DNA from: Candidatus Doudnabacteria bacterium
Lineage (GTDB): Bacteria > Patescibacteriota > Doudnabacteria > UBA920
NCBI GenBank assembly: GCA_031291995.1
Contig: JARLHZ010000030.1
Coordinates: forward strand, 1-62,454
DNA length: 62,454 bases
Direction: 5' to 3'
In this document: positions 15,935-32,283 of the stretch, in pieces
Layout of the letters: every line of letters begins with the position of its first letter
How positions within the stretch are numbered: the stretch's first letter is position 1
Made by a program: the position numbers and the translations under genes
The notes under the pieces: generated by a model
Seen by the model: the letters and a program-made list of their open reading frames with translations, nothing else
What the model was told of the DNA's origin: nothing
Database searches by the model: none

Positions 15935-16442
15935 GAACATCATTCGGGGTGCTATGGGAGTGATCCCATACCATGTGTCTTTCATCCGTCTCTCCATGTT
16001 CATAGCATGGAGGATATAATTTTGAAAGAAAATAAATTCGGCTTATAACGGTGGAACCGTAGTTAACTATGTGAGAACTCTTTGTTCTAGTTAACCGGTA
16101 ATACCGTGGGAAGTCTGCGCGAAGCGCAACAATAACTATAATGAATAACAATAACCACTGCAGTTGCAGAAGTTATAGTTATAATTATTGTTATAGTTTG
16201 CCCCCCGCATGACCCCGTAACGACTGACCCGAAAGGGGAGGTTTAAATTAGTGATTAGTGAATAGTGCTTAGTGATTAGTACTGCAGGAATGCAGTTACT
16301 ATCCACTACCCACTAACACTGCCCACTAGTTTAGACAACACGCCGACTCTTGTCACAAAAAAGCAGACTACGGAGACTAATCCTAATGTCGCTGGCAAGA
16401 AGAAGATATAGTCTACACCATACGAAAGTATGGAATTAGGTA
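15935..16442 (+). mobile_element. 508-nt group-I-like intron/insertion in the 23S peptidyl-transferase region (after the U equivalent to E. coli ~U2500); no credible ORF
   Basis: It interrupts the universal ggcaccu|cgaugucgg. Intron gggtgc (15947-15952) can pair with exon gcacct (15929-15934), giving a U.G pair at the splice site. There is a GAAA-capped hairpin ccatac-gaaa-gtatgg near the 3' end. Confidence 0.55.
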
Positions 16443-16472
16443 CGATGTCGGCTCATCACATCCTGGGGGTGT

Positions 16473-16509
<37 letters not shown>

Positions 16510-17095
16510 TGGTACGCGAGCTGGGTTCAAAACGTCGTGAGACAGTTTGGTCCTTATCTGCTGTGGGTGTACGAAACTTGAGTAGTCGCATCTCTAGTAC
16601 GAGAGGACCGAGATGCATAGACCTCTGGTGTACCCGTTGTCCTGTCAAGGGCATGGCGGGGTAGCTAGGTCTAGTTAGGATAAGCGCTGAAGGCATATAA
16701 GCGTGAAGCCGTCTACAAAACTAGGTTTCGTTGTTCTAATTTATTAGAACGAAAGGTTCGGGGAAGACTACCCCGTACAACAATCGAAAGTTTTTTGGCG
16801 AAGTAGCAATATGGATCCAAAAGAAAATAGATTTATAGGCTGCAGGTGTAAGCACAGTAATGTGTTCAGCCGAGCAGTACTAATCAACCAAAAGTTTTAA
16901 TTTTCTTTGACTAGCAATTTGTGCATAGAGCGAAGCCCCGCCAAGCGGGGCGTAGCACCTTATTATTCTCCCCCTGCGGGGGGAGATGTCACGCGGAGCG
17001 TGACAGAGAGGGTGCAAGCAAGATACGATGTTTAACAACTTACAATGTTCACAAAGTGCGCCCTTTTAAATTTCCAATAAGTTGGACATTTAAAA

Positions 17096-17206
17096 GGGTG
17101 GCATTTCCAGCCGGGCTCGACCTGATCCCATCCCGAACTCAGTAGTCAAAACGGCTTGGGCCAATGATAGTCCTACGCATGTAGGTGCAAAAGTAGGTGG
17201 CTGCCC
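17096..17206 (+). rRNA. rrf: 5S rRNA
   Basis: cccatcccgaactcagtagtcaaaac core. Terminal helix gggtggc / gctgccc. Confidence 0.85.
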
Positions 17207-17218
17207 CATTTATCAATC

Positions 17219-17248
17219 GCTCCGTCTTAACAGACGGAGCTTTTGTTT
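17219..17248 (+). terminator. Intrinsic terminator of the rRNA operon
   Basis: gctccgtc-ttaaca-gacggagc followed by ttttgtttt. Confidence 0.8.
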
Positions 17249-17275
17249 TGGTCAAAAATTTGCTATTATTTGAAT

Positions 17276-17806
17276 ATGATTTATTTTTTACTCGCATTTT
17301 TGGTTTTTGCCTGGATTTTGGTTTTTGTGGTTTTAAGCGAATTTATTGCCTTTATCCGCACCCGGGTGCCGTTTGTCCCTACGACGTCCAGCGACGTGGA
17401 GTTTTTTATAAATAAATTGGGCATTAAGCCGTCCGATACTTTTTACGATCTTGGTAGCGGCAATGGCCGGGTGGTTTTTATGGTAGAAAGGCTGAGCGGC
17501 GCAAAATCACAGGGCTTTGAGCTCGGGTGGTGGACCATATTGTTTGCCAAGTTAAAAGCCAAACTGAAGGGCTATAAAGCCAAGTTTGTAAACAAAAATT
17601 TTTTCAAAGAAGACTGGTCCGGCGCCAATTACATTTACGGATATTTATATCCACCGCTAATGGCCAGAGTGGAGGCCAAGTTTTTAGCTGATTGCAAGCA
17701 AGGAAGTATTGCGATAATTCGCGATTTTCCATTGCCTAATTTAAAACCGGTCGAAACTTTCTTTATGCCCCACAAGCATGAAATTTATATATATAAAAAA
17801 GTGTAG
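17276..17806 (+). CDS. Class I SAM-dependent methyltransferase with N-terminal TM helix
   Basis: VPFVPTT...FYDLGSGNGRVVF motif I. ATG at 17276 was chosen because the TTG at 17243 overlaps the 5S terminator. Confidence 0.6.
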   Translation: MIYFLLAFLVFAWILVFVVLSEFIAFIRTRVPFVPTTSSDVEFFINKLGIKPSDTFYDLGSGNGRVVFMVERLSGAKSQGFELGWWTILFAKLKAKLKGYKAKFVNKNFFKEDWSGANYIYGYLYPPLMARVEAKFLADCKQGSIAIIRDFPLPNLKPVETFFMPHKHEIYIYKKV

Positions 17807-17887
17807 GCCATATTTATTGAAATGATGGTTTAAATACCCTTTATTTAAAGGGTATTTTTATTTATCCACATAAGTGTAGAAAAAAAG

Positions 17888-17916
17888 TTGACAAAAAAAA
17901 TTCTTGGATGTATATT
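17888..17916 (+). promoter_or_regulatory. Sigma-70-type promoter of the TrmB-like gene
   Basis: TTGACA (17888-17893), 17-nt spacer, TATATT (17911-17916). Confidence 0.6.
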
Positions 17917-17931
17917 TTATTGGTACTCTTT

Positions 17932-18076
17932 TGTCATCCCGACCGACCGTCGCCAAGGCTTTGGCTGCCAGGCCGACATCATCGTAAGCATGGGTCAGGC
18001 GAGAGGAGGATACGTTTTGCAAGAATTATCTATATTAAGGGATTCCTCGCCCAAAGCGCGCGGTCTCGGAATGACA
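17932..18076. repeat. Palindromic element (tgtcatcccgac ... gtctcggaatgaca) in the 5' UTR of the TrmB-like gene; variant of the gtgtcattgcgag family
   Basis: Terminal inverted repeats read directly. The element ends 15 nt before the ATG at 18091. Confidence 0.55.
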
Positions 18077-18090
18077 CCTTTGATGATTTT

Positions 18091-18843
18091 ATGGACATCC
18101 AAGTTATATTAAAAAACTTTGGCCTATCTGAGAAAGAGATATCCGTATATCTTGCGCTTATTGAACTCGGCCCGTCGTCGGTGAGGGAAATATCGGCTAA
18201 ATCCAAAGTGAACCGAGGGACATCTTATGATATTTTAAAATCGCTGATTGCTTTGGGAATCGTTTCCTACTATAACAAGGAATCCAAACAATATTTTGTG
18301 GCCGAACAACCGGAGAAATTATTATCGGCGATTGACCAGAAAAAAGAAGATTTGGACGAAGTGCGCGAAAATATCAAGCAAAGTTTGCCGCTGATAAAAA
18401 CCTTGTTTGAAAAACAAGGCGGAAAGCCGGTTGTAAAATTTTATGAGGGCAGTAAAGGCGTAAGGCAAATATTTGAGGACGTACTGGACGAAGTATCGTC
18501 GTCTGCGGATAAATTATATTATTTATATTCATCGGCGACCGCGGAACATCGCAAGAACGTCTATGGGTCAATGCCGGATTTCAGCGAAAAACGGATAAAA
18601 AAAGGCGTAAAAGTAAAAATTATTTCTTTGGGCGAGGGTGGACAATTGGCCGGACTTGATGAAAGAAAACAAATGCCCATTGGCAGCAAAGATTTAAAAG
18701 CCACGCACGAAATTATTTATGCAGGTAAAGTCGCGCATATCAGCATCGACAGTAATGGCGAACCGGTGGGGGTGGTAATCCGGAACGAAGAGATTCATAA
18801 TATGCAGAAGACTATTTTTGAATTTAATTGGAGTAAATTATAG
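18091..18843 (+). CDS. TrmB-family-like transcriptional regulator (wHTH plus C-terminal domain)
   Basis: LSEKEISVYLALIELGPSSVREISAKSKVNRGTSYDILKSLIALGIVS. The start was moved to the ATG at 18091 because the upstream part of ORF 17908 is promoter plus palindrome. Confidence 0.65.
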   Translation: MDIQVILKNFGLSEKEISVYLALIELGPSSVREISAKSKVNRGTSYDILKSLIALGIVSYYNKESKQYFVAEQPEKLLSAIDQKKEDLDEVRENIKQSLPLIKTLFEKQGGKPVVKFYEGSKGVRQIFEDVLDEVSSSADKLYYLYSSATAEHRKNVYGSMPDFSEKRIKKGVKVKIISLGEGGQLAGLDERKQMPIGSKDLKATHEIIYAGKVAHISIDSNGEPVGVVIRNEEIHNMQKTIFEFNWSKL

Positions 18844-18844
18844 T

Positions 18845-18937
18845 AATCCGGAACTACGGAACTTATCCAGAACTACAGAAAACTACAGAAGTTTATTTCC
18901 GCAGTTTTCCGTAGTTCGTGCTTAATTTCCGGATTGA
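18845..18937. repeat. Word hairpin (AACTACGG/AACTACAG versus CCGTAGTT words) between the TrmB-like gene and glmS
   Basis: 5' arm aatccggaactacggaacttatccagaactacagaaaactacagaag; 3' arm ccgcagttttccgtagttcgtgcttaatttccggatt. Confidence 0.75.
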
Positions 18938-18956
18938 TTCCGGATTGGAGAAATAT

Positions 18957-20777
18957 ATGTGCGGAATTGTCGGTTACATCGGTAAAAAACAAGCGTTGCC
19001 AATCCTGCTGCAGGGATTGCGCGATTTGGAGTATCGCGGCTACGACAGCGCTGGGATCGCTGTTCTTGATAATGGAAAAATCGATAGAGTACGAGAAGTC
19101 GGCAAAGTGGATATGCTTGCCAAAAAAATCGGCCAAGTAAAAATTGCCGGTACTTTAGGTATTGCCCATACTCGCTGGGCTACGCACGGCGGCGTTACTG
19201 AGTTTAATGCCCATCCTCATATTGTCGGTAGCGGCAAGCTGGCTTTGGTCCATAACGGCATTATTGAAAACTATCGAGAAATAAAAAAACAATTAAAGAA
19301 CCAAAAGCAGGAATCGGAGACAGACTCTGAGATTCTGGGTCAATTAATTTTTGAAAACTACGAGGGCGATTTGGTCAAAGCGGTTAAAAAATCTTTGTTA
19401 AAAGTGCGCGGCACATACGGAATTGTTGTTATGCACGCCGATCATCCAAACCAATTGGTAGCGGCCCGTTTGGGTAGTCCGCTCGCCATTGGAATCGCGG
19501 AAGGGGAATATTACATTGCTTCCGACGTCACGCCGATGTTGCCGTTTACCAAGCAGGTGACGTTTTTGGATGATGGCGAGATTGCCAATATAAACGGTGA
19601 TGGGTTGAAAATCCAGAATATGAGGGACGAAATTATAAATAAAACCATTACACATATCGACTGGGACCAGCAGAAGGCGCAAAAGGGCGGCTTTGAAAAT
19701 TTTATGATCAAGGAAATTTTTGACCAGCCAACGGTGTTTGAAGATGCCATAAGGGGGCGGTTTAATATGGAAGAAGGTACGGCGGTTTTGGGCGGTTTGA
19801 ATATGACCTTGGAACAAATGAGGGATATTAAGCGCGTGATTTTTGTCGCGGAAGGAACGGCCAGGTATACGGGATTAATCGGCAAATATGCCTTTGAAAG
19901 ATTGGCGGATTTGCCCTGTGACGTGGATTTTTCTTCCGAATTCCGCTACCGTGATCCGGCGGTAAACAAACATACTTTGGTTTTTGTTATTTCCCAATCC
20001 GGCGAAACGGCCGACACGCTTATGGCCACCAGAGAGGCCAAAAGAAAAGGAGCCGTGGTGAGGGGAATTGTTAACGTCATTGGCTCAACCATAGCGCGCG
20101 AAACCAAAGCGGGTACCTATATTCACGCCGGTCCGGAATTATCGGTCGCTTCCACCAAGGCCTATACCAACATGGTCGCTGTTTTGCTTTTGTACGCCTT
20201 ACAGTTCGGCCGCATTAAGCACACCTCCTTGGCTACCGGCAAACGGCTGCTTCAGGCACTATTGGAAATTCCCGAAAAAATGAATGAGATTTTAAAACAG
20301 GATGCTGCTATAAAAAAAATAGCCGAAAGTTACAAGGATTATAAAAGTATTTTATATATCGGCCGCGGCGTAAATTATCCGGTAGCTCTGGAAGGCACAA
20401 TGAAATTAAAAGAAACTTCTTATATTCACGCGGAAGGATTTGCCGGCGGCGAGCTAAAGCACGGGCCGTTGGCACTGGTGAGCAAAGATGTCCCGGTCGT
20501 GGCTATTTTAAGCAAAGACCAGCTCTACGAAAAAATGAAATCCAGCATCCAAGAAGTCCGCGCCCGCGGCGCCAGGACATTGGTGATAGCCACGGTCGGC
20601 GACGAAGAAGCCAAGGAAGTGGCGGATGATATAATATACGTGCCAGACACCATGGAACTGCTCGAACCACTACTAAACACCATTCCGCTACAACTCTTTG
20701 CCTACCACATTGCTGTAGCCTTAGGCCGTGACGTCGACCGCCCGCGAAATTTAGCGAAAAGTGTTACGGTTGAATAA
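18957..20777 (+). CDS. glmS: Glutamine--fructose-6-phosphate aminotransferase
   Basis: MCGIVGYIG N-terminal nucleophile, two SIS domains and a C-terminal ...LAKSVTVE. Confidence 0.95.
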   Translation: MCGIVGYIGKKQALPILLQGLRDLEYRGYDSAGIAVLDNGKIDRVREVGKVDMLAKKIGQVKIAGTLGIAHTRWATHGGVTEFNAHPHIVGSGKLALVHNGIIENYREIKKQLKNQKQESETDSEILGQLIFENYEGDLVKAVKKSLLKVRGTYGIVVMHADHPNQLVAARLGSPLAIGIAEGEYYIASDVTPMLPFTKQVTFLDDGEIANINGDGLKIQNMRDEIINKTITHIDWDQQKAQKGGFENFMIKEIFDQPTVFEDAIRGRFNMEEGTAVLGGLNMTLEQMRDIKRVIFVAEGTARYTGLIGKYAFERLADLPCDVDFSSEFRYRDPAVNKHTLVFVISQSGETADTLMATREAKRKGAVVRGIVNVIGSTIARETKAGTYIHAGPELSVASTKAYTNMVAVLLLYALQFGRIKHTSLATGKRLLQALLEIPEKMNEILKQDAAIKKIAESYKDYKSILYIGRGVNYPVALEGTMKLKETSYIHAEGFAGGELKHGPLALVSKDVPVVAILSKDQLYEKMKSSIQEVRARGARTLVIATVGDEEAKEVADDIIYVPDTMELLEPLLNTIPLQLFAYHIAVALGRDVDRPRNLAKSVTVE

Positions 20778-20791
20778 TTAAAGTTTTACCA

Positions 20792-21439
20792 ATGAATGAC
20801 TTCAAAGGAATAGAAAAATTTGTTTCAGAAAAATCCTCTAAAAGAGTAGAGGCTGGCAGTATTCCTGAAGATGAACGGATGATTTATGCTAATGAGGCAA
20901 TTCATAGCGACTCATCGTTGAAAGATTATGAAAGATGGATGACAATAAACACGGACAGATTTGTTGGAAAGAAAATTTTGGATATTGGTGGTATGCCAAA
21001 CGGTAAATTTGCTAGAGCGGCCAAAACGAAAGGTATAGATTTGGTAACACTTAACCCTTCTATTTCGGAAATTGCAAAAGAAAGACCAATCAAGGGTAGA
21101 AATGTTATCGCGGGTTATGTACAAAACTTGCCATTTCAAGACGAGACCTTTGATTATGAAATTTCATATGGCGCAATACCTTCTCATTTGGCCCCAGTAG
21201 AGAAAGAATATTCCGATGCATTTAATGAAATTTTCAGAACATTAAAACCAGGCGGACAAGCTTATTTAGTACCTGTTTATGGGAGTGTGCTTAAAACCGA
21301 AGTTTTTCAAAAAATAAAAGAAGGTCTATTAAATAGAGGAGCCGAAATAATTTTAGATGATGTTGGATTTGTTCTTGATGAAAATAAGGCAAAAGTTAAA
21401 GTATTTAAAATGACTGTGAAAAAGAAAAGTAGAAGCTAA
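20792..21439 (+). CDS. Class I SAM-dependent methyltransferase
   Basis: ILDIGGMPNG, LPFQDETFDYEIS and LKPGGQAYL motifs. Confidence 0.55.
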   Translation: MNDFKGIEKFVSEKSSKRVEAGSIPEDERMIYANEAIHSDSSLKDYERWMTINTDRFVGKKILDIGGMPNGKFARAAKTKGIDLVTLNPSISEIAKERPIKGRNVIAGYVQNLPFQDETFDYEISYGAIPSHLAPVEKEYSDAFNEIFRTLKPGGQAYLVPVYGSVLKTEVFQKIKEGLLNRGAEIILDDVGFVLDENKAKVKVFKMTVKKKSRS

Positions 21440-21539
21440 CTTTTATAAAAGCTCTTTTTTTCGACCCCAATACCACTCGCTTTGGCATTCGTCGGACTGG
21501 GTGCGGGGCGAGTAAATCAAAAAATTAACTGGTAAATTT

Positions 21540-22703
21540 ATGAAGGCATTGGTATTTGATAAAAGTAAATATAATTGGGAATTTTCGCGCGGGTTTGAGC
21601 TCGTGGATGTACCAGAGCCGGTTTTGGGCGCGGGCGATGAAGACAAGATAATCATAAAAGTCTATTACGCGGGCGTGTGCGGGACGGACAAGGGAATTTG
21701 GAACCGCATGGCGTTTAAGGATGCAATTTTAAATTCCATAGAAGCTGATTTAGACGCTGGAAGAAAACGCCGTGATAACGCCTATAGAATCATCGGACAT
21801 GAGTTTTTTGGTGAGGTAAAAGCAGTTGGGTTGGCGGTTAAAGATATCAAGGTGGGTGATATGGTGGCGTGCGAATCCCATGTGGTGGACAATAAATGCT
21901 ACCAATGTTTGCATGGACAAAAAAATGTCTGTACCAATGAAAAGATTTTAGGTATTAGTGTAGACGGCGGCTTTGCGGAATATGCCAAAGTCCCGGCACA
22001 GGTGGCCTGGAAAACTGACGTCAACAAAATCCGTCCCCAAATTGCGGCTATGCAGGAGCCGTTTGGCAATGCGGTCCACGCGGCGTCCAAAGTTGATTTA
22101 AAAGATAAAACCGTGGCCATTTTTGGCCTTGGCCCGATTGCTCAGTTTTTGGTGTTAATTGCCAAAGGCTTAGGGGCCAAAACTATCATCGGCGTTGAGC
22201 CAAACGATCAGGCTATCGAAATGGGTAAGAAGCTTGGTGTGGATCACCTGATAAAATTAGATGTAGCGCAGGCCCCCGGCCTGCCCTATAAGCATAACCA
22301 GCAGATTATAGATCAAATACTAAAATTGACCAATGGGCTCGGCGTGGATGTAGCTTTTGAAATGGCCGGATTTAATGATTCGGTTAATAATGCAATTGCT
22401 TCTGTCCGGCGCGGCGGCGATGTCATACTGTTCGGGTTAAAAACAGGGGATTTTGTGTTTGAAGATTTTAATAAGCTGGTCATGAAAGGAATTACCATGC
22501 ACTGCGTGGCTGGTCGGCAGATTTGGGGAACCTGGGAAATTACTAAAAAGCTGATGGAAGACAAAAGCAATCAAGTTCAAGAAAAATTGTGGTCGGTGTT
22601 GTTGAATAGTGGGGCAGGCACTATTTTAAACATCGCGGATTATAGCAAGGAAAAGTTTGAGGAGATGATGAACGAGCACCCTAAGTTTTTAATAAAATTT
22701 TAA
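21540..22703 (+). CDS. tdh: L-threonine 3-dehydrogenase (Zn-dependent MDR family)
   Basis: GVCGTDKGIW, GHEFFGEV and QEPFGNAVHAA. Followed by kbl. Confidence 0.8.
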   Translation: MKALVFDKSKYNWEFSRGFELVDVPEPVLGAGDEDKIIIKVYYAGVCGTDKGIWNRMAFKDAILNSIEADLDAGRKRRDNAYRIIGHEFFGEVKAVGLAVKDIKVGDMVACESHVVDNKCYQCLHGQKNVCTNEKILGISVDGGFAEYAKVPAQVAWKTDVNKIRPQIAAMQEPFGNAVHAASKVDLKDKTVAIFGLGPIAQFLVLIAKGLGAKTIIGVEPNDQAIEMGKKLGVDHLIKLDVAQAPGLPYKHNQQIIDQILKLTNGLGVDVAFEMAGFNDSVNNAIASVRRGGDVILFGLKTGDFVFEDFNKLVMKGITMHCVAGRQIWGTWEITKKLMEDKSNQVQEKLWSVLLNSGAGTILNIADYSKEKFEEMMNEHPKFLIKF

Positions 22704-22707
22704 AAGC

Positions 22708-22812
22708 AATCCGGAACTGCGGAAACATCCGGAACTACGGAAAACTACAGAAGCAATTCCGTAGGTTCCGTAGCTTTCCGTAGTTCCGGATATAATCTGT
22801 AGTTCCGGATTG
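22708..22812. repeat. Word hairpin (same vocabulary as 18845-18937) between tdh and kbl
   Basis: aatccggaactgcggaaacatccggaactacggaaaactacagaag / ttccgtaggttccgtagctttccgtagttccggat...gtagttccggatt. Confidence 0.75.
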
Positions 22813-22821
22813 GAGAATATT

Positions 22822-24099
22822 ATGTACAAAAACTATAAACAACAATTTCAAGGCGAGCTTAAGGAAATTAAAGATGGCGGGATGTGGAAGGACGTAGGCG
22901 TGTTGGAAGGAAAGCAGGGAAGTGAAATATTGATCAAGAATGACAAGATTGACATGACTGACAAGAATGGGGGACAGAAACTCCTTAACTTTTGTGCCAA
23001 TAATTATCTTGGCCTGGCGTCATCGGAAGAACTCGCCAAGGCCGCTAAAGAAGGCGTGGACAAGTACGGGTTTGGCGAGGCGAGTGTGCGATTTATTGTT
23101 GGCACATCCACAATCCATAAAGATCTTGAAAAAGAAATCAGTAAATTTTTTGGCACCGAAGACGCGATTACCTACACGTCGTGCTTTGATGCCAACACCG
23201 GGCTGTTTGAGACCATCTTAAAAGAAGGGGATGCGATTTTTTCCGATGAGCTGAATCACGCATCCATAATCGACGGTATACGCTTATGCAAGGCTGAGCG
23301 CTTCCGTTTCAAGAATAGCGATATGTCAGATCTTGAGGACCAACTGAAAGAAGCGTCATTGAGGCCGGAAAACCCTCACCCCGGCCCTCTCCCAAAGGGA
23401 GAGGGGGTTGCGTATAAACCGCGCAGGATGTTAATTGCTACAGATGGTGTGTTCTCGATGGATGGGATTACAGCCAAAGTTTCAGAAATTTGCGACTTGG
23501 CGGAAAAGTACGGAGCCTTGGTTATGGTTGACGACAGCCATGCCAGCGGAGTCCTGGGTAAGACCGGCCGGGGGAGCGTGGAAGGACTAATGGACCGCGT
23601 TGATATTTTAACTTCAACTTTTGGCAAAGCTTTAGGCGGAGCCGGCGGCGGATTTACTGCCGGCCGAAAAGAAATTATTGATGTTTTGCATCAGCGCAGC
23701 CGTACGACCTTATTCAGTAACTCCTTGCCGCCGATGATTGCCAATGCGGCTTTGTTTGTGCTCCAGAATTACGATAAAAAGTTTAACCATAATCGCGAGC
23801 AATTAATCGAAAACACAAATTATTTCCGCTCGGCTATGGAAAAACTCGGCTTCCATCTCGGGGGAGACGGCAAGCATCCGATTACTCCGGTAATGCTTAT
23901 GGACGAAAAAATCGCCGTAGAAATGGCTGGAAAGTTATTTAAAGAAGGTGTTTATGTCCGCGGGTTTACTTATCCGGTGGTACCCAAAGGGAAAGCCCGC
24001 ATTCGGGTACAAATCTCAGCCGCGCACACTAATGAACATATGGATAAAACCGTCAGAGCCTTTGAACAAGTAGGAAAAGAAATGGCAATCATAAAATAA
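22822..24099 (+). CDS. kbl: Glycine C-acetyltransferase (2-amino-3-ketobutyrate CoA ligase)
   Basis: NNYLGLA, DELNHASIIDG, DDSHASG and TFGKALGG (PLP lysine). ATG at 22822 follows ccggattggag. Confidence 0.9.
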   Translation: MYKNYKQQFQGELKEIKDGGMWKDVGVLEGKQGSEILIKNDKIDMTDKNGGQKLLNFCANNYLGLASSEELAKAAKEGVDKYGFGEASVRFIVGTSTIHKDLEKEISKFFGTEDAITYTSCFDANTGLFETILKEGDAIFSDELNHASIIDGIRLCKAERFRFKNSDMSDLEDQLKEASLRPENPHPGPLPKGEGVAYKPRRMLIATDGVFSMDGITAKVSEICDLAEKYGALVMVDDSHASGVLGKTGRGSVEGLMDRVDILTSTFGKALGGAGGGFTAGRKEIIDVLHQRSRTTLFSNSLPPMIANAALFVLQNYDKKFNHNREQLIENTNYFRSAMEKLGFHLGGDGKHPITPVMLMDEKIAVEMAGKLFKEGVYVRGFTYPVVPKGKARIRVQISAAHTNEHMDKTVRAFEQVGKEMAIIK

Positions 24100-24114
24100 C
24101 GAATAAAAAACTTT

Positions 24115-24140
24115 AATAGTTTAGACTATTAAACTTTTTT
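24115..24140. promoter_or_regulatory. 26-bp box aatagtttagactattaaactttttt, copy 1, ending 5 nt before the ATG at 24146
   Basis: Exact repeat of 24673-24698. Contains the inverted repeat taatagt / actatta. Confidence 0.6.
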
Positions 24141-24145
24141 CCAAT

Positions 24146-24682
24146 ATGGCTAAATTTCCAAGAAAACCGAAAATGGATAAGTCCGAAATGCAAGAGATTA
24201 TAATTGACTTTTGCCAGGCTATTGCCGCAACCAAAAGCAGCCAAGAAGCCGCCCAGCTACTCACGGATTTATTAGGCAAGCAGGAGTTGGAAATGCTAGC
24301 TATGAGGTTGAGAATCGCGGAATTGTTGCTCGATGAACAGACTTACGAGCAAATCCGTAAAATATTAAAAGTTAGCCAAGCCACAATTGCCAGAGTCCAG
24401 ACCTGGCTTCAGACCTCAGGAGATGGTTACCGTTTGATCATTCAAAGAATCAAAGGGCGCAGCCAGAGCAGGTATGAAAACGAAAAGCCTTTTAAGCTTT
24501 CAGGAATAAAGAAAAAGTACCCATTATATTTCTGGCCGCAAATTGTATTGGAATATTGGGTAAAAAATTCTAGCCGGAAAGATAAAGAGCAAATGCAAAA
24601 ACTTTTAGCAAAGATTAATGATAAGCCTAAGATGTACAAAGAATTGGAAGGTATTTTAAGAACAAATAATTCAATAGTTTAG
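24146..24682 (+). CDS. YerC/YecD (TrpR-like) family DNA-binding protein with extra C-terminal region
   Basis: LLGKQELEMLAMRLRIAELLLDEQTYEQIRKILKVSQATIARVQTWL. Confidence 0.6.
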   Translation: MAKFPRKPKMDKSEMQEIIIDFCQAIAATKSSQEAAQLLTDLLGKQELEMLAMRLRIAELLLDEQTYEQIRKILKVSQATIARVQTWLQTSGDGYRLIIQRIKGRSQSRYENEKPFKLSGIKKKYPLYFWPQIVLEYWVKNSSRKDKEQMQKLLAKINDKPKMYKELEGILRTNNSIV

Positions 24683-24698
24683 ACTATTAAACTTTTTT
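24673..24698. promoter_or_regulatory. 26-bp box, copy 2, ending 4 nt before the ATG at 24703
   Basis: Exact repeat of 24115-24140. Confidence 0.6.
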
Positions 24699-24702
24699 CA
24701 TT

Positions 24703-25668
24703 ATGAAAAATATTGTAATCATCGGTGGAGGCACAGGGACGTTTACGCTTTTATCCGGGTTGAGAAAATTTCCATCAAATAATACCGTTATAGTTTCGTC
24801 CGCCGACGACGGAGGGTCTACCGGCATCCTCCGCAAAGAACTTGGCGTTATGCCCCCGGGCGATATTCGCCAGTGCCTGGTGGGTTTGTCTTATACTCAG
24901 GATGAAATGAAGGAACTGTTTAATTTTAGGTTCGACAAGGGTTCTTTGGCTGGCCACTCCGTAGGGAATATAATTTTGGCGGCTTTGGAAAAAATTGCCG
25001 GAACCGAGGAAGGCATTAATCTTGCCGCAAAAATGCTCAATGTCCGCGGCCAGGTTTTGCCGGTGTCTTTAATCCCGACCACTTTGTCGGCGACATTGCA
25101 AAACGGTAGAAAAATTGTAGGCGAGCATTATATTGACGACCAAGATTCTAAAGGCAAAGCCTCGCCGATAAAGTCCCTCAGTCTAACTGCTGCTAAAGTC
25201 AATCCTAAAGCACTCAAATCTTTGGAACAGGCCGATGTTATTGTCTTTGGACCGGGGGATTTGTTTACCAGCATTTTGCCCAATATTTTGATCAAAGATG
25301 TTTCCCCGACAATCAATAAATCCAAAGCCAAGAAAGTTTTAGTGGTTAACATTATGACGAAGTTTGGGCAGACCGATGGGTTTAAAGCTTCGGATTTTGT
25401 TCGAATTTTAGAAAAATATTTAGGGGGCAAAATTGACGCTGTCCTGGAAAATAGAAAAAAACCTTCCGCTGAAGTATTAAAAAAGTACGCCGCGGAAAAA
25501 GCCAAGTTTGTCGAGCCGGATCTGAAAAATTCCCAACGGTTGCAGGTTATTGCGGAAAATTTAATCTCCGATGAACTAATAAAAAAGGCATCCGGGGATA
25601 GTTTAAAACGCAGTATGCTTAGGCACGATGCGCAAAAATTAGCTAAATTAATTTGGGGGCTTGTTTAA
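24703..25668 (+). CDS. YvcK / CofD-like (UPF0052) gluconeogenesis-factor family protein
   Basis: IVIIGGGTGTFTLLSGL...SSADDGGSTGILR...PPGDIRQCL. Confidence 0.8.
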   Translation: MKNIVIIGGGTGTFTLLSGLRKFPSNNTVIVSSADDGGSTGILRKELGVMPPGDIRQCLVGLSYTQDEMKELFNFRFDKGSLAGHSVGNIILAALEKIAGTEEGINLAAKMLNVRGQVLPVSLIPTTLSATLQNGRKIVGEHYIDDQDSKGKASPIKSLSLTAAKVNPKALKSLEQADVIVFGPGDLFTSILPNILIKDVSPTINKSKAKKVLVVNIMTKFGQTDGFKASDFVRILEKYLGGKIDAVLENRKKPSAEVLKKYAAEKAKFVEPDLKNSQRLQVIAENLISDELIKKASGDSLKRSMLRHDAQKLAKLIWGLV

Positions 25669-25669
25669 T

Positions 25670-26032
25670 ATGGATATTACATCGGAAAGAATTGAAAAAG
25701 ACATTTACGGCATTAAAATTTCCGCTCTGGATGGCGGCAAGGTTGTCGGCTGGACACAGCTCTATATTATCCGCAACGAACGACACGACGAGCCCTATGC
25801 ATTTTTGGAAAATCTTTATATAGAGGAAGAATACAGGTCCCAAGGCCTTGGCACCCAACTGGTTCAGGCGGCTATCGGGGAAGCCAAAAAACTGGATTGC
25901 TATAAAATTATCGGCACCAGCCGGTCCTTTAAGGAAGGGGTGCATAAGTTTTATTTAAAGAACGGTTTTACCAACTGGGGTTACGAGTTCCGGATGGACT
26001 TAAAGGAATCAAAATCGAAACAGCAAGATTAA
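25670..26032 (+). CDS. GNAT family N-acetyltransferase
   Basis: LYIEEEYRSQGLGTQLVQAAIGEAKK acetyl-CoA binding motif. Confidence 0.7.
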   Translation: MDITSERIEKDIYGIKISALDGGKVVGWTQLYIIRNERHDEPYAFLENLYIEEEYRSQGLGTQLVQAAIGEAKKLDCYKIIGTSRSFKEGVHKFYLKNGFTNWGYEFRMDLKESKSKQQD

Positions 26033-26044
26033 TGTTTTGTGACT

Positions 26045-26131
26045 TGTAGTTAGCCCATTTATGGGCTGTTTAAAAAACAGCCGATAAATCCAACTTCGCT
26101 AAAGCTATATCGGACGAGTCGGCTAACTACA
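26045..26131. mobile_element. MITE-like palindromic element, family 2 (diverged copy), ending 7 nt before the ATG at 26138
   Basis: Perfect 11-bp TIR tgtagttagcc / ggctaactaca. Internal mini-palindromes are cccatttatggg and ccgataaat. Confidence 0.6.
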
Positions 26132-26137
26132 TTAAAA

Positions 26138-26893
26138 ATGCACATGCGCAATCAAATTGTCATCTTAGCCGCGGGCAAAGGCACCAGAATGGGAGGCAAT
26201 ATTCCCAAGGTTTTGGTCATGCTTAACAACAAGCCGTTAATTTTGTACGCCCTGGAGGAAATTGAAAAAATCAACCAGTTAGCCAAACCGGTGATTGTAG
26301 TGGGTTATGGTGCCGGTAAAGTCCAGCAGGTATTAGGTAATGACTACACTTATGTTTTTCAGGAAAAGCAGCTCGGGACCGCGAACGCCCTGCTCTCAGC
26401 AAAAAATAAAGTAAAGGCGGACAATATTCTGGTGCTTTATGGCGATATGCCGTTCATTAAAGCGCAGAGCCTGAAAAATTTAATTAAACTGCATTTTAAA
26501 AGCGGCGGCAAAATTACCATGCTCACGGTCGAGTCCCCGAATTTTAGAGGCTTATATTCATCGTTAGAACACTACGGACGGATTGTGCGCGACACCCGCC
26601 ACCAGGTGGCGGGCGTGGTGGAATTTAAAGATGCCAGTGCCGGGCAAAAAAAGATCCGCGAGGTAAACCCCGGAATATATATGTTCAACACAAAATGGCT
26701 GTGGGAAAATTTGGCAAAAATTGGCAACAAAAATAAACAGCAGGAATATTATTTAACCGACATAGTGGCGTTGGCCGTGAGCCAGGGGCTAAAAGTCCAA
26801 AGTTTAAAGACGGAGGCCAAAGAAGTGTTGGGAGTTAACAGCAGGGAAGACCTGGTAAATGCGGAAAAATTAATGCGGAACTACGGAAGTTAA
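26138..26893 (+). CDS. Sugar-phosphate nucleotidyltransferase (GlmU N-terminal-domain-like)
   Basis: ILAAGKGTRM...PKVL...QLGTANAL...YGDMP. No LbH acetyltransferase domain. Confidence 0.7.
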   Translation: MHMRNQIVILAAGKGTRMGGNIPKVLVMLNNKPLILYALEEIEKINQLAKPVIVVGYGAGKVQQVLGNDYTYVFQEKQLGTANALLSAKNKVKADNILVLYGDMPFIKAQSLKNLIKLHFKSGGKITMLTVESPNFRGLYSSLEHYGRIVRDTRHQVAGVVEFKDASAGQKKIREVNPGIYMFNTKWLWENLAKIGNKNKQQEYYLTDIVALAVSQGLKVQSLKTEAKEVLGVNSREDLVNAEKLMRNYGS

Positions 26894-26972
26894 TGCGGAA
26901 CTACGGAAAACTGCGGAATTTACAGAACTTCGGAACTAAAGTGTTCCGTAGATTCCGTAGTTTTCTGTAGTG
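26858..26972. repeat. Word hairpin (AATGCGGAACTACGG versus CCGTAGTT words) overlapping the 3' end of the nucleotidyltransferase gene
   Basis: aatgcggaa x3 and aactacgg x2, then gttccgtagattccgtagttttctgtagtg. The C-terminal residues MRNYGS are encoded by the words. Confidence 0.75.
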
Positions 26973-27048
26973 CCCCTTCCCAAATTTCCGTATTCCCCCC
27001 TGTGCATATCATACCCCTCACCCCCTTAAAAACAGGGGATTTTAATTA

Positions 27049-27088
27049 TTGACAATAAATAGTATGATGTTGTATGATACTATCATAC
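27049..27088 (+). promoter_or_regulatory. Promoter-like TTGACA-N18-TATGAT overlapping the palindromic box GTATGAT-act-ATCATAC (27072-27088)
   Basis: TTGACA at 27049-27054, TATGAT at 27073-27078, perfect 7-3-7 inverted repeat. Confidence 0.5.
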
Positions 27089-27258
27089 AAATTGATAATC
27101 CGCCTTCGCCGGGGCTTCCTCCTTCGCTACAAGCTATTGCGGACAGGTCGGCGGATGACCTGCAAAAAATAATTTGGTAGGTCAAGGCAGATGTGGGAGC
27201 CGTATAGCATAACTATACGACCCCGCCATCTGCCTTTTGAGTCCTGGGACAAACAAAG

Positions 27259-27489
27259 GTGGAAATAAAACCACAACGAGGAAATACATTGCGCACTTTT
27301 GAGTTTATGTTCACAACCGGGATCTGTTGGATGCCCGCTGAAGACAAATATCACGCTTTTGCATTAGGACATCTTTTGGCTGACGAAGATAACTCCTTTG
27401 GGAAATTCATCGGCGCCATAGAAAGAGGCGTCTATAGATCCAACCACGGTATGTTTGTGGCGAGAGAGATTGTCGAGGAATGCGCGTAG
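27259..27489 (+). CDS. Hypothetical small protein (60-76 aa), start uncertain
   Basis: This is the only sizeable + strand ORF in 27.0-27.9 kb. No clear SD and no recognised motif. Confidence 0.25.
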   Translation: MEIKPQRGNTLRTFEFMFTTGICWMPAEDKYHAFALGHLLADEDNSFGKFIGAIERGVYRSNHGMFVAREIVEECA

Positions 27490-27492
27490 CTC

Positions 27493-27572
27493 GGGCGGAC
27501 ACACACTGAAGAATGGAATTTATGAAGGAACTTCAAGTTCCGGATAAATTTTGTGCCTCAGTGTTGTCCGCC
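27493..27572. repeat. 80-nt nested hairpin
   Basis: gggcggacacacactgaag...aatttat..ggaact-tca-agttcc..ataaatt...ctcagtgttgtccgcc. Confidence 0.65.
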
Positions 27573-27729
27573 GCAACACCTAAATTGACATTTCTCTGTC
27601 ATCCCGAAATTTTTCAGGGCTGTGTAAAATATCCGGGAGCCAGTCTTGGTATTAATTTGACTTTTAATTTTTTAGTTCTTTAAAAAAGCTCGGTACCATT
27701 AGGCGGCAAGTTTCAGCAACAAAAACCTC

Positions 27730-27811
27730 GTGTCATTGCGAGGATTGCAGCCGACGAAGCAATCTTTGTTATTCTGGGAATAGATTGCTTCGGCTGCACT
27801 CGCAATGACAC
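27730..27811. mobile_element. MITE-like palindromic element, family 1 (gtgtcattgcgag ... ctcgcaatgacac), nested in a larger palindrome 27700-27840
   Basis: 13-bp TIR, internal agcaatct / agattgct. Outer arms are ggcggcaagtt..aacaaaaac and cttttgttttt..aacttgccgc. Confidence 0.7.
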
Positions 27812-27915
27812 AGCTTTTGTTTTTCCAACTTGCCGCTTGCCCGAATTTAGGGAAAAGTCGGGCAAGGGGTACCTCTAACTATAAGGGGGAATTTTCTATA
27901 CTAAGGAGATAAACT

Positions 27916-29073
27916 TTGAAACCGAGAAAAATTGAAGTTATCGGGGATTTCGGACTCGGTAGTCCGAATGAACGGGTCTCGTTGTGGTTTCTGCTCCGTC
28001 TTATCTGGGAGCAGTTTGGAATCTGGGGTTATGCCCAGAGCAACGGAATTGAAAAGGCGCAAGAAGCCGTTGTGGCTTACAAGCGCAATCGGCACGGGGT
28101 AGTATTGGATCCCTGCAAGAACGTCCGCTTCAGTCCCAAAGGTACGCGGATCATCTATCCTTTTCTGATTCAGCTCATCTTGGAGCAGCTCAAAAGAACG
28201 GAAGTGGTGATGACTCTGCCATTTTACCCCGGACATCTAAAAGCAGTTCGTTGGGCCGGTGGCAAGGCTGTGTTCCTGGCGGCGCTTTCTGCCGTGACTT
28301 ATGTTGACCGGCTCGAGGAGAAGCTGCGAAAAGGTGGATTTCACCCGGCCGCTGTTATAATCTGCTCAATTGGCAACCCCTACGGATACAAGTGCGACCT
28401 TGAATCATTTCGGCGACTGGTTGCGCTGGCTCACGAATTCGGCTTTATCCTGATTGTAGACGAAGCATATGCCGAGTTGTCTTACGATTGTATCCCAGCT
28501 CCTTCGCCATTTGAGGTGGAGGGAGCACTACCGGTTACGGTCGCCACGATGACCGGCTCCAAGTTTTTGTCAGCGGCGGCAGGCGGAATTGGGCTCTCTA
28601 TAGGGCCGGAACGAATTCTGCAGCCTTTAAGCGAAAATATGGAATTCCTCAGTGAAGGTGGCAATGGACTAATTCAGTCCGCATTCGCGTTCGCGCTGCC
28701 GCACATCGAGCCATATGTACGCAACCTCGCCAAGCTTTACGATTCCCGCGCGCATTCCTACGCCGACCTGCTGTATGAAGCTGGCTTGTACGAAGCAAAG
28801 TCGGGCGTCGGCGATGGCGGCATGTTCCTCTGGGTGCCTACGGACGATCTTAGTTCCAATGAATTGGCCGACCGTGCGCAGAGCGAAGGGGTTATCATTC
28901 GCCCCGGTAGCATGTTCCTCGACACGGGGGATGACCAGCGGCCGGGCAACATGAACTTCCTGCGATTCTGTTTGCGGGAACGAGACCAGGTGGCTGCGCG
29001 CTCTTTCCGCGCTCTTCGTCCGCTCATCACGACAATGCGGATCGAAAAGTGCGAAAACTCCTTAGTTTATTAG
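27916..29073 (+). CDS. PLP-dependent aminotransferase, class I/II fold
   Basis: ILIVDEAYAEL and TMTGSKFLSAAAGGIGL (Lys motif). TTG start 7 nt after AAGGAG. Visibly more G+C-rich than its neighbours. Confidence 0.65.
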   Translation: MKPRKIEVIGDFGLGSPNERVSLWFLLRLIWEQFGIWGYAQSNGIEKAQEAVVAYKRNRHGVVLDPCKNVRFSPKGTRIIYPFLIQLILEQLKRTEVVMTLPFYPGHLKAVRWAGGKAVFLAALSAVTYVDRLEEKLRKGGFHPAAVIICSIGNPYGYKCDLESFRRLVALAHEFGFILIVDEAYAELSYDCIPAPSPFEVEGALPVTVATMTGSKFLSAAAGGIGLSIGPERILQPLSENMEFLSEGGNGLIQSAFAFALPHIEPYVRNLAKLYDSRAHSYADLLYEAGLYEAKSGVGDGGMFLWVPTDDLSSNELADRAQSEGVIIRPGSMFLDTGDDQRPGNMNFLRFCLRERDQVAARSFRALRPLITTMRIEKCENSLVY

Positions 29074-29150
29074 TTCAAGGCGGGCGGACTGTTGGATGCT
29101 AAGCCAACCTCCGCCCCGCTAATTTATTAATTTTTGAATTTTTTAAAATT

Positions 29151-29167
29151 GTATGATATCATCATAC
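29151..29167. promoter_or_regulatory. Palindromic box GTATGAT-atc-ATCATAC upstream of the RHH-nucleotidyltransferase gene
   Basis: Perfect 7-3-7 inverted repeat, preceded by ttgaattttttaaaa, which is shared with 36048-36062. Confidence 0.55.
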
Positions 29168-29176
29168 TAGATATAA

Positions 29177-29205
29177 ATTCCGTAGTTCTGTAGTTTTCCG
29201 TAGTG
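29177..29205. repeat. CCGTAGTT word arm, direct repeat of 26943-26972
   Basis: attccgtagttctgtagttttccgtagtg versus gttccgtagattccgtagttttctgtagtg. Confidence 0.75.
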
Positions 29206-29226
29206 AATTTTAAATATTTCCGCAGT

Positions 29227-30093
29227 ATGAATCGTGAACGCCTGACAATTACCCTTAGAGCCGACCTTCTTAAACAGCTGGACGGACTTATAGACGGCCA
29301 GCGCTTGCGCAACCGAAGCCACGCAATTGAATATTTTTTGTCGCGCAGTTTGGGCGCGCAGAATTTAAAAGTTTTGGTTTTGGCCGGCGGCAAACCGGTA
29401 TATTTTGACAGCGAAAAAAAAGCTTTGCCCAAGGCTATGGTAAAAATTGCCGGCAAGCCTTTGCTCGAGCAGACTTTGCTGCGCCTCAAGGCTTCCAAAT
29501 TCAGCGAAGTAATTATATCTATAGGCGAGGGCGGCGAGAACATAGAAAATTATTTTGGCGACGGGTCGCGCTTCGGCATCAGCATTACTTATCTATATCA
29601 AAAAGAACTCAGCGGCCGCCATGAACCGGGGCGGTACATGTCAGGCAACGCCCAGCCGCTGCTCCAAGCTCGCGAAATTTTGGCCGGCGGCCCGTTTTTA
29701 CTTCTGTACGGCGATGTGCTTAGTGATGTGGATTTTGGCGATTTGGTGGAATTCCACCGGGCGCAAAAATCCTCCGTTTGCACCATGGCCTTAACCAGCG
29801 CCGAAAGCGTGAATATGTGGGGCCTGGCCCGGCTCCAGGGCAACCGCGTAGTTGAGTTTGAGGAAAAACCCAAAAACCCCAAAACTTTTTCCCGCCTGGT
29901 CAACGCCGGCGTCTATATGGCCGAGCCGGAAATTTTCAGTTTCATCAGCCAGAAATGCCAAAAATTGGAAAGCGACGTTTTTCCTCGTTTGGCCGAGGAA
30001 GGAAAGCTGTTTGGCTATCCTTACGAAGGCCTGTGGCTGGACATCAGCAACAGCGCGGCCTACCGACAGGCGGTTAAGGAACTAATAAGCTAA
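29227..30093 (+). CDS. Ribbon-helix-helix (CopG/NikR-type) domain fused to a sugar-phosphate nucleotidyltransferase
   Basis: MNRERLTITLRADLLKQLDGLIDGQRLRNRSHAIEYFLSRSL, then VLAGGKP...LPKAMVKIAGKPLL...YGDVL...NAGVYM. Confidence 0.7.
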   Translation: MNRERLTITLRADLLKQLDGLIDGQRLRNRSHAIEYFLSRSLGAQNLKVLVLAGGKPVYFDSEKKALPKAMVKIAGKPLLEQTLLRLKASKFSEVIISIGEGGENIENYFGDGSRFGISITYLYQKELSGRHEPGRYMSGNAQPLLQAREILAGGPFLLLYGDVLSDVDFGDLVEFHRAQKSSVCTMALTSAESVNMWGLARLQGNRVVEFEEKPKNPKTFSRLVNAGVYMAEPEIFSFISQKCQKLESDVFPRLAEEGKLFGYPYEGLWLDISNSAAYRQAVKELIS

Positions 30094-30173
30094 TATCCTA
30101 ATTTCAATAAATATCTATTAATATCCGGGCTGAAACGATATTGGTAGATATTAGTTGATATTAATAGATATTA
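30092..30173. repeat. Word hairpin (AATATC versus GATATT words) upstream of gap
   Basis: taatatcc..aaatatc..taatatcc gggctgaaac gatattgg..agatatt..ttgatatt..agatatt. Confidence 0.65.
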
Positions 30174-30187
30174 TTAAGACACAAATT

Positions 30188-32073: not shown

Positions 32074-32110
32074 ATGCTGTATTATACAGGAAAATGGGGT
32101 ATAATAGAAT

Positions 32111-32203
32111 AGATTGAACAGGAATTAAAAGGTTTAAATGATTGACATGATTTTAGGTCAGTAATTCTTGTCAATCTTGTTCAATCGTGTCATTCTTGTC
32201 AAT
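32111..32203. repeat. Word hairpin (ATTGAACA/ATTGACA versus TTGTCAAT/TGTTCAAT words) in a divergent promoter region
   Basis: agattgaaca...attgacatga ... cttgtcaat cttgttcaat cgtgtcatt cttgtcaat. Confidence 0.55.
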
Positions 32204-32283
32204 TTACCTTTGAGAATCATCGCCGGCCTCCCCCACCTTCGCTAACGCTTCGGATGGCCTTCGGCAAATCCTCCACACTTTCT

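Follow-up and report, generated by a model that had tools for sequence, protein, structure and literature searches.

The 62,454-nt contig JARLHZ010000030.1 of Candidatus Doudnabacteria (hereafter the window, meaning the whole stretch of DNA analysed) carries four loci made of short degenerate "words" (the ACTACGG vocabulary, here B type), which lie between protein-coding genes and outside the rRNA. These loci are probably gene-less copies of the brackets that enclose genes for GxxExxY nucleases, and thus selfish elements resembling intervening sequences (IVSs) or REPINs, the hairpin-forming kind of repetitive extragenic palindromic (REP) sequence. A full cassette of a second word type (A type), with its nuclease open reading frame (ORF), is present in the same window. 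Metagenome loci and contigs fetched for comparison carry L-numbers (L005, L120, etc.). The features that bear most directly on this reading are:

18845-18950, + strand: locus 1, solo gene-less palindrome, B type, between a TrmB-like gene and glmS.
22707-22812, + strand: locus 2, solo palindrome, B type, about 42 base pairs, between tdh and kbl.
26858-26972, + strand: locus 3, B-type element with a hairpin core at about 26895-26972, at the 3' end of a nucleoside triphosphate (NTP)-transferase gene.
29177-29226, + strand: locus 4, B-type solo half-bracket (3' side), with antisense words only, immediately before the ATG at 29228.
2863-3368, + strand: full A-type cassette, word arrays around a GxxExxY / PD-(D/E)XK ORF.

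Hairpins fill most spacers of the window, and many are composed of short tandem words; the units are 8-10 nt long at the four loci and heptamers in the 23S rRNA inserts. The words that the first-pass annotation of this DNA had reported at the four loci are present: ACTRCRGAA has 19 matches on both strands of the window, 18 of them inside the four loci, against an expectation of 1.02 +/- 0.96 (maximum 4) from 100 dinucleotide shuffles. Three of the loci are complete palindromes, each folding into one long hairpin with interruptions, in which the 5' arm is made of sense words and the 3' arm of antisense words; the complementarity of their arms is well beyond chance (z -6 to -13). The minimum free energies on the + strand are -40.4 kcal/mol for locus 1 (18844-18957; z -6.4 on the + strand, -10.2 on the - strand), -67.0 kcal/mol for locus 2 (22704-22822; z -11.8 and -12.9), and -57.6 kcal/mol for locus 3 (26855-26995; z -7.6 and -4.8). 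The fourth locus is the 3' half of a bracket, and 29170-29235 does not fold (z +1.4 on the + strand, +1.2 on the - strand), so that the hairpins originally claimed for all four sites stand at three and fail at 29177-29226.

Loci 1 and 2 have the outer AATCCGGAAC/GTTCCGGATT ends in common, and their 3' arms run into TTCCGGATTGGAGAA(A)TAT(T)ATG before glmS and kbl, with the 3' arm abutting the Shine–Dalgarno (SD) sequence; at locus 1 (arms at about 18846-18893 and 18896-18950), the arm stops 3 nt before GGAG. This agrees with the reported extension of the words into SD regions, as does locus 3 with their reported spill into a coding end: extra sense words (26858-26894), among them a perfect 20-nt x2 duplicate, cover the last codons of the NTP-transferase ORF (26138-26893), of which the final six (…MRNYGS*) are word-encoded. 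Perfect tandem duplicates comprise 20 nt x2 at 26870-26908 (100% identical copies) and 10 nt x2 at 18871-18890. These extra words (26855-26896) are able to form a duplex with 29176-29228 (-32.3 kcal/mol, z -6.2), and loci 3 and 4 might therefore conceivably form the outer bracket of a 2.3-kb segment.

Several other explanations for such arrays carry little weight. Artefacts of assembly or polishing have virtually no probability: four independent Logan assemblies, made from different runs, match the window with 100% identity over 16531-27758 or parts thereof, which excludes an assembly artefact for the spacers concerned, and the same arrays occur in dozens of unrelated assemblies, being identical in up to six samples. 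Rho-independent terminators or attenuators would account for strong hairpins between genes, but this role is extremely unlikely given that the stems are 40-50 bp long, AU-rich, and interrupted, that no U-tract follows them, and that no + strand terminator-like site was found at 18.9, 22.7, 26.9, or 29.2 kb, while canonical terminators are predicted elsewhere in the window (e.g., 17219-17240 and 17832-17857). The view that the arrays are neither CRISPR nor classical REP sequences is supported, and they are probably not miniature inverted-repeat transposable elements (MITEs) either. In contrast to CRISPR, the units adjoin one another or nearly do, are degenerate, and reappear in mirror image as inverted arrays; as regards MITEs, no insertion sequence (IS) transposase is involved at the loci. 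Rfam searches of the spacers and of 26850-27950, at the gathering threshold and at E <= 1, returned no known RNA family.

The A-type cassette had been listed as a mere "CGCGGAT" spacer at 2862-3368, by which the central point was missed, namely that word arrays are the two ends of a GxxExxY gene cassette. It consists of ACGCGGAT words (2863-2932), a 129-codon ORF (2933-3319), and ATCCGCG words (3320-3368), and the two arms form a predicted duplex of -62.5 kcal/mol (z -7.7). The ORF matches PF13366 (PDDEXK_3; 2.3e-26, 92.9 bits vs. a cut-off of 22) and TIGR04256 (3.9e-28, 98.1 bits vs. a cut-off of 35), and reads in frame through the 3' words into a prepilin-like gene (N_methyl hit). The catalytic residues E30, D69, E79, and K81 are invariant across 52 homologues, and an AlphaFold (AF2) model (predicted local distance difference test, pLDDT, 90) has a PD-(D/E)XK fold. 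Foldseek returned generic PD-(D/E)XK matches alone (Cas4 SSO0001, lambda-exo-like, and Hjc), at E >= 2.5e-3, and a PDB sequence search gave no match. The family is large (more than 1100 homologues at E <= 1e-10 in one search), and Pfam-based surveys list its function as unknown. Within the window, tblastn with B-type and C-type GxxExxY proteins and with 23S_rRNA_IVP (IVP) proteins detected no remnants of these genes outside 2933-3319.

In the window and in other genomes, word brackets accompany GxxExxY genes consistently. All 14 of the genes examined, representing 10 independent sites, are bracketed, and with the same polarity throughout: the 5' flank holds sense words only and the 3' flank antisense words only, against a background of 0.03-0.04 words per flank (the regular expression for the C words was written after the sequences were seen). 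For the A type, this applies to eight of eight genes, at eight operon sites in different metagenome-assembled genomes (MAGs), with ACGC[GAT]GAT words 5' and the complement 3'. The seven fetched A-type homologues (52-81% mutual identity) are co-oriented with their neighbours and have ACGC[G/A/T]GAT(C) words 5' and the complement 3'; their sites are 2-Hacid_dh/NeuB, PilC/pilin, PNP/unknown, PmbA/TldD, AAA_14/beta-helix, PaaX/HhH-GPD, and Fib_succ/ABC. A B-type subfamily (L120, L158, L159, and L160), with 68-78% identity within it and 31-41% to the A type, has ACTACAGAAAACTACAGAA in the 5' brackets and TTCTGTAGTTTTCCGYAGTG…TTTCTGTAG in the 3' brackets. A third vocabulary, C type (ACACGGAT/ACAGAT, as at 12899-12979 in the window), brackets the GxxExxY genes of L104 and L158b. 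The nuclease subfamilies go with different words (ACGC[G/A/T]GAT, ACTAC[G/A]GAA, and ACACGGAT/ACAGAT), and the word-encoded N-terminus of the B-type L120 protein (M-x-T-L-Q-K-T-T-E) is kept in 16 of 22 of its homologues fetched, with substitutions in some. A full cassette can therefore be described, from these cases, as 5' sense words of 8-10 nt, a nuclease ORF of about 130 amino acids, and complementary 3' words, located in a host-operon spacer in the orientation of the host genes.

The vocabulary is not "private", as the first-pass annotation had it, given that the same word arrays turn up in numerous unrelated contigs from metagenomes. Scanning metagenomes for ACTACGGAAAACTRCRGAA yielded 54 loci, about 20 of which hold genuine clusters of words; in L126, over 30 tandem GGAAAACTAC decamers precede the antisense array, and in L120 the scan match lies directly 3' of a divergent GxxExxY gene (first codons ACACTACAGAAAACTACAGAAG). 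A scan of viral_contigs for the B word pattern gave 0 hits, and hence no sign of phage carriage.

Bracketed genes also occur together in a PrgI-TraC-VirB4-like operon (type IV secretion/conjugation-like) of Candidate Phyla Radiation (CPR) MAGs, in which GxxExxY and IVP genes occupy spacers that differ by genome (L158 1334-3879, L159 3001-3402, and L160 732-4320). This distribution over operon spacers is a presence/absence polymorphism, as expected of mobile or hitch-hiking genes. Four IVP (PF05635) genes in L155, L158, and L160 have inverted-repeat brackets, three of the four consisting of word arrays, with AACTTGGA/AACTTAGG, ATCCTTA/TAAGGAT, and GTAAGGA… as the words. An 8-mer comparison of these IVP brackets with the 23S inserts of the window was too noisy to use.

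The solo loci of the window can be aligned with these brackets: the 3' flanks of B-type GxxExxY genes match the 3' arms of loci 1, 2, and 4. The 3' arm of locus 1 aligns with the 3' brackets of L120, L158, L159, and L160 and with the solo L137, which ends in the same …ATTTCCGGATTGATTCCGGATT, and the co-linearity of window 29176-29240 with the 3' flanks of L159 and L120 extends as far as the next ATG. Solos in L099, L103, and L104 and the core of locus 1 have the form …ACTAC[G/A]GAAAACTACAGAA – 3-14 nt – TTC[T/C]G[T/C]AGTTTTCCGTAGT…; such a core consists of the inner ends of the two brackets placed side by side, without an intervening gene. On sequence comparison, then, the hairpins are homologous to GxxExxY cassette brackets and shared across metagenomes.

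A different protein could be responsible: the arrays may be DNA binding sites (operator- or iteron-like, with ~10-bp phasing) for a transcription factor or other protein unrelated to GxxExxY. Several arrays have a 10-nt period (including the >30 decamers of L126), some one-armed arrays are located just upstream of start codons (29177, 1955, and L107), and TrmB-like and Trp-repressor-like genes are nearby. We consider this very unlikely, since periods vary from 7 to 13 nt, the same architecture is found inside 23S rRNA and a group I intron, and the strict sense/antisense polarity at 14 of 14 nuclease genes would be unexpected of operators.

Spacers of related genomes can be compared with the solos. 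The nearest kbl loci (66-81% amino-acid identity) belong to MAGs labelled Patescibacteria, Saccharibacteria, or Doudnabacteria, which have the gene order 23S-5S-…-trmB-glmS-…-tdh-kbl in common with the window. Their tdh-kbl spacers hold word hairpins with other words in L006 (GTAAGYG/CRCTTAY) and L009 (ACGCTGAT/ATCAGCGT), an ordinary long hairpin in L008, and no hairpin in L007, L011, L012, L013, and L014, where the spacer is 12-35 nt long; the hairpins are not conserved RNAs. At the level of populations, up to six samples that share the same coding sequences (CDS) also share the same arrays, so any stutter is not fast but slow at the clonal-population scale, and no change in progress was observed. 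The "stuttering" repeat process that had been proposed is upheld by perfect multi-word tandem duplicates.

As side observations on the same genes, kbl itself contains an in-frame insert of ~20 amino acids (RPENPHPGPLPKGEGVAYKP) at 23362-23437, which holds the palindrome ccctctcccaaagggagaggg, and a similar palindrome (cctcccccctcaagggggagg) is present at the corresponding position of L005 kbl; from the two, a palindromic element appears to have been inserted within the kbl coding sequence. In L005, glmS likewise has an in-frame insert (~6521-6630) from a GTCGTTGCGAGG…GCAATC…GATTGC hairpin element, which recalls the Rickettsia palindromic elements that insert in ORFs.

Several points weigh against the derivation of the four loci from nuclease cassettes. 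There is no B-type GxxExxY gene in the 62-kb window and no pseudogene remnant in or near the solos, so that derivation from a cassette is argued by arm homology only. The B-type gene contexts represent two independent insertion sites rather than four, because L120, L158a, and L159 share the PrgI-TraC spacer, and L120 was found via the word pattern itself. The match of word to subfamily is not strict, as two proteins with a mutual identity of only 34% have the C vocabulary in common. The IVP genes, which are unrelated and do not encode nucleases, are bracketed in the same style, and the bracket may therefore not be a nuclease recognition site. Comparison of filled with empty tdh-kbl spacers, the two being too diverged to align, showed neither a target-site duplication nor a sharp insertion boundary, and the arrays compared across samples revealed no word copy-number variation.

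Mobility of the cassettes, recognition of the words by the nuclease, and RNase III processing are inferred. The cassettes would be selfish or hitch-hiking, comparable with a 23S IVS that carries an ORF, a homing-endonuclease gene of the free-standing kind, or a REP-associated tyrosine transposase (RAYT) gene flanked by REPs, with the words serving as recognition units of the cognate nuclease. In the operon transcript, pairing of the arms would produce an imperfect stem of 40-50 bp with the cargo looped out, and RNase III would probably cleave this stem, by analogy with IVSs. Solo hairpins would arise when the ORF is lost or when copies lacking it spread in trans, and their arms may then grow or decay by tandem word duplication that is not always compensated on the opposite arm. 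More generally, and only tentatively, the GxxExxY (PF13366) proteins could be the nucleases of palindromic word elements, each subfamily having its own 8-10-nt word, with the gene at the dyad and the solos propagated or maintained in trans. Such a relationship would explain ORF-less IVS-like hairpins in CPR mRNA spacers, rRNA, and introns, and would link 23S IVSs, small genes between operon genes (e.g., IVP in cas loci), and the dense intergenic hairpins of CPR genomes. Subfamily-specific brackets and gene-less copies give PF13366/TIGR04256 a testable role, as nuclease of a selfish palindromic cassette. The elements also affect annotation: they extend or fuse ORFs (MRNYGS*, and the GxxExxY-pilin read-through) and add rRNA inserts, and they could be misclassified by repeat finders as repeats of another class.

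Word hairpins within the rRNA locus of the window bear on a further explanation. The 23S gene (13067-16903) has inserts relative to Escherichia coli at positions 271/301 (96 + 104 nt), 651 (99 nt), 2500 (508 nt), and 2831 (56 nt), and contains the following word hairpins:

13352-13447, + strand: heptamer-word hairpin (TAGTGAA / GATAAGG) in 23S, at ~E. coli 271; z -6.3.
13957-14055, + strand: heptamer-word hairpin (GATAAGA / CTATTCT) in 23S, at ~E. coli 651; z -5.9.
16110-16345, + strand: two word hairpins (16110-16215 and 16235-16345) inside a group I intron; z -6.1 and -7.6.

The TAGTGA/GATAAG words noted earlier inside the 23S gene accordingly lie in a hairpin (13352-13447). The 508-nt insert (15935-16442) matches Rfam Intron_gpI over the full model (33 bits, E 1e-6, below the gathering score); it has no ORF, its peripheral stems are word hairpins, and it is precisely absent in L007, L011, L012, and L014, where the alignment skips from 15934 to 16443. 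In the 23S inserts and the two intron stems, 5-bp helices are separated by 2x2 loops (z -5.9 to -7.6), which shows that it is within each arm that the unit is multiplied. At H98 (about E. coli position 2831), L005, L008, L009, and L011 differ in their heptamer words and have the same GCAA apex, L012 has no insert, and double changes affect 9 of 20 consensus pairs (four sequences only). Compensatory word changes between relatives, one of the checks suggested for these arrays, are thus seen at this one 23S site, and the pattern is compensatory slippage as named for eukaryotic rRNA expansion segments. In the rRNA inserts, G-U pairs occur on the RNA strand only. Beside the 23S gene, which is linked to 5S (12186-13066 and 13067-17209), no 16S gene or tRNA was found in the 880 nt upstream; along this 880-nt leader, word hairpins of at least five different kinds follow one another.

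A rival reading takes the word hairpins primarily as host RNA elements (for intercistronic mRNA processing, stability, or translation coupling, or as expansion stems of rRNA and introns) that grow by compensatory slippage, with GxxExxY and IVP genes as secondary invaders homing into the loops of cognate palindromes already in place. The features on its side, in addition to the H98 hairpins, the periodic helices with each arm duplicating its own unit, and the G-U bias, are that all solos are located within co-directional gene strings with the 3' arm ending beside the SD, that precedents exist (compensatory slippage, and the cyanobacterial short tandemly repeated repetitive (STRR) hairpins between hupS and hupL), and that an insertion splitting a palindromic target would also leave inverted half-sites around the gene. 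Nevertheless, we regard it as rather unlikely for the four loci. The tdh-kbl spacer hairpin is dispensable in five of nine relatives, and one-armed arrays exist (29177 and 1955). Moreover, local slippage alone cannot account for 20-nt bracket cores that are shared by unrelated metagenomes and unrelated loci. The mRNA spacers also lack a consistent strand bias, the + strand being the more stable in some and the - strand in others, which argues against strong RNA-level selection there; of the selection at the RNA or hairpin level that the first-pass annotation had invoked, arm complementarity beyond chance is retained and the RNA level is not evident in mRNA spacers. A bracket-derived, selfish origin is the reading that we retain for the four loci.

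The word-hairpin architecture is a clade-level trait of CPR genomes, and not unique to them. In a census of hairpins of at least 18 bp with both arms internally periodic at 6-13 nt, their density per 100 kb is 6.4 in the window, 5.7 in 10 CPR relatives, and 0.3 in 70 loci of other phyla, an approximately 20-fold enrichment in the CPR clade; a census based on Tandem Repeats Finder (TRF) gave 11.2, 2.3, and 1.1, respectively. All of these figures are lower bounds, because both detectors under-call: the fixed-period autocorrelation detector does so for variable word length (the tdh-kbl hairpin scores only 0.47), and the TRF-based detector misses degenerate arrays. The non-CPR word hairpins are mostly from Acidobacteria (e.g., AGTCCCA x8 / TGGGACT in L069). 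Near-perfect acidobacterial hairpins are located at L069 3955-4042, L057 6115-6204, L076 5714-5782 and 11201-11277, and L024 17965-18010, and the words also include CGCGAAATA x3 / TATTTCGCG; no GxxExxY or IVP genes were seen within the 20 kb fetched around the Acidobacteria hairpins.

Further word arrays of the window are:

1103-1189, + strand: GATATT-word hairpin, no cargo family identified; z -5.5.
1955-2047, + strand: A-type sense-only array, ACGCGGAT x about 7, upstream of a pilin-like gene.
12553-12623, + strand: small A-type hairpin in the 23S leader.
12899-12979, + strand: solo C-type hairpin, ACAGAT/CGGAT words; z -6.0.
30092-30173, + strand: GATATT-word hairpin, arm order opposite to that of 1103-1189; z -5.5.
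44429-44560, + strand: A-type bracket pair without a gene, enclosing a small terminator-like hairpin.

The claim that other spacers have the same architecture with different words is borne out by clear hairpins at 1100-1200, 30085-30180, 12190-12275, 12890-12985, and the 23S inserts (z -4.5 to -7.6). It is borne out less clearly where folding is weak (12735-12800, z -3.6; 12545-12625, z -1.7; 32105-32215, z -1.9) or where the array, taken alone, is one-armed (1950-2047, z -1.5, no hairpin; 44420-44480, z -2.8). The first of these one-armed arrays includes a perfect 13-nt x2.6 duplicate (1960-1993). The second is one half of the gene-less bracket pair, the ACGCGGAT words at 44429-44471 being matched by TCAGCGT words at 44515-44560 (arm duplex -39.3 kcal/mol, z -4.6; fold -48.2).

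Repeats of other kinds are also present. A perfect CTAACTC x11.3 heptamer array in one orientation (59739-59817) overlaps the stop of a - strand ORF (59802-60578) that has no Pfam hit; its perfection suggests a recent expansion, or possibly a contingency locus. At 60-288, a 109-nt unit is repeated x2.1 (93% identity), with an internal hairpin (ccgacaactatcgg… / tatacgaaaccg) in each copy. A separate family of non-word hairpins, GTCATTGCGAG…CTCGCAATGAC with arms of ~35 nt, is found at 27732-27809, 39644-39729, and L005 9151-9260, and another dispersed hairpin family, gtagcgtgccgatttatcggcg … gcccataaatgggca(c/t)gctaca, at 34277-34348, 40720-40790, and 26040-26130. Inverted GTATGAT/ATCATAC motifs lie over promoter-like sites (TTGACA-18-TATGAT) at 27049-27078 and 29134-29162, and this overlap at 27.05 kb and again at 29.14 kb is seen once more at 36.08 kb; the motif may be a regulatory palindrome distinct from the word hairpins.

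The design principle of these hairpins had been thought undescribed, but has precedents in STRR hairpins, compensatory slippage in rRNA expansion segments, and the heptamers of the Coxiella IVS. A literature search of incomplete coverage, and so amounting to absence of evidence only, found no description of word-bracketed GxxExxY genes or of gene-less CPR copies. Vioque, in 1997, is said to have described an STRR inside a structural RNA, and we know of no gene associated with STRRs. STRR heptamers form intergenic hairpins in cyanobacteria, e.g., between hupS and hupL, and are of unknown function (PMC2670836). The four loci are similar in having short tandem intergenic units able to form hairpins, but have units of 8-10 nt and belong to Patescibacteria, whereas STRRs have 7-nt units and belong to heterocystous cyanobacteria. 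In compensatory slippage, as the work of Hancock and Dover (1990) is summarised in PMC1888808, a motif duplicates on one strand of a helix and a matching change follows on the other. The word hairpins of the 23S gene and the intron are consistent with such slippage, as are the perfect tandem duplicates; it is, however, a mutational mode rather than an element, and leaves shared vocabularies and bracketed nuclease genes unexplained.

The 23S IVSs of Leptospira, Coxiella, and Salmonella (S23p/PF05635 ORF) have terminal inverted repeats, a long stem, and an optional small ORF in the loop, as do the word elements, and occur in ORF-less and ORF-bearing versions; the window's own 23S carries ORF-less word hairpins. 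In Coxiella, a 28-bp inverted-repeat stem with the S23p ORF in its loop is cleaved by RNase III, and 2-3 tandem GACAGAT heptamers, strain-variable in number, precede the ORF in the 5' arm of this element, which is regarded as selfish (PMC4990558). Insertions in CPR rRNA encode 23S_rRNA_IVP, in an account that leaves hairpins and repeats unmentioned (PMC11270868), and IVP genes are also wedged between cas genes (PMC3936711). The four loci differ from IVSs in that they lie in mRNA spacers and not in an rRNA helix (unlike the word hairpins at 13352-13447 and 13957-14055, which are in rRNA), their arms are multi-copy word arrays, and their full-length relatives carry a PD-(D/E)XK GxxExxY gene (PF13366) instead of S23p; the solos have no ORF, and no PF05635 remnant was found in the window.

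Free-standing homing endonuclease genes are of the phage seg/mob type. Like these, GxxExxY genes are small nuclease genes wedged between conserved co-oriented host genes, with no obvious promoter of their own, and are present or absent at orthologous spacers (PrgI-TraC-VirB4). Classical homing endonuclease genes, by contrast, have no inverted word-array brackets and leave no solo hairpins. Gene-less copies of REPs and REPINs are dispersed in intergenic space, and RAYT lineages go with different repeats. The RAYT gene is flanked by cognate repeats in inverted orientation (a concept partly from PMC3116915). The word elements share with this system short extragenic palindromes, a gene flanked by inverted cognate repeats (14/14), dispersed gene-less copies, and gene lineages that go with different repeats. 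They differ in that the protein is a ~130-amino-acid PD-(D/E)XK nuclease, not an HUH/Y1 IS200/IS605-like transposase, and that each arm is an array of 8-10-nt words, where REPs have a single palindrome of 20-40 bp. By this comparison, REP/RAYT is the closest functional analogy, and the proposed association of GxxExxY nucleases with word elements, if true, would represent a PD-(D/E)XK counterpart of the RAYT-REPIN partnership.

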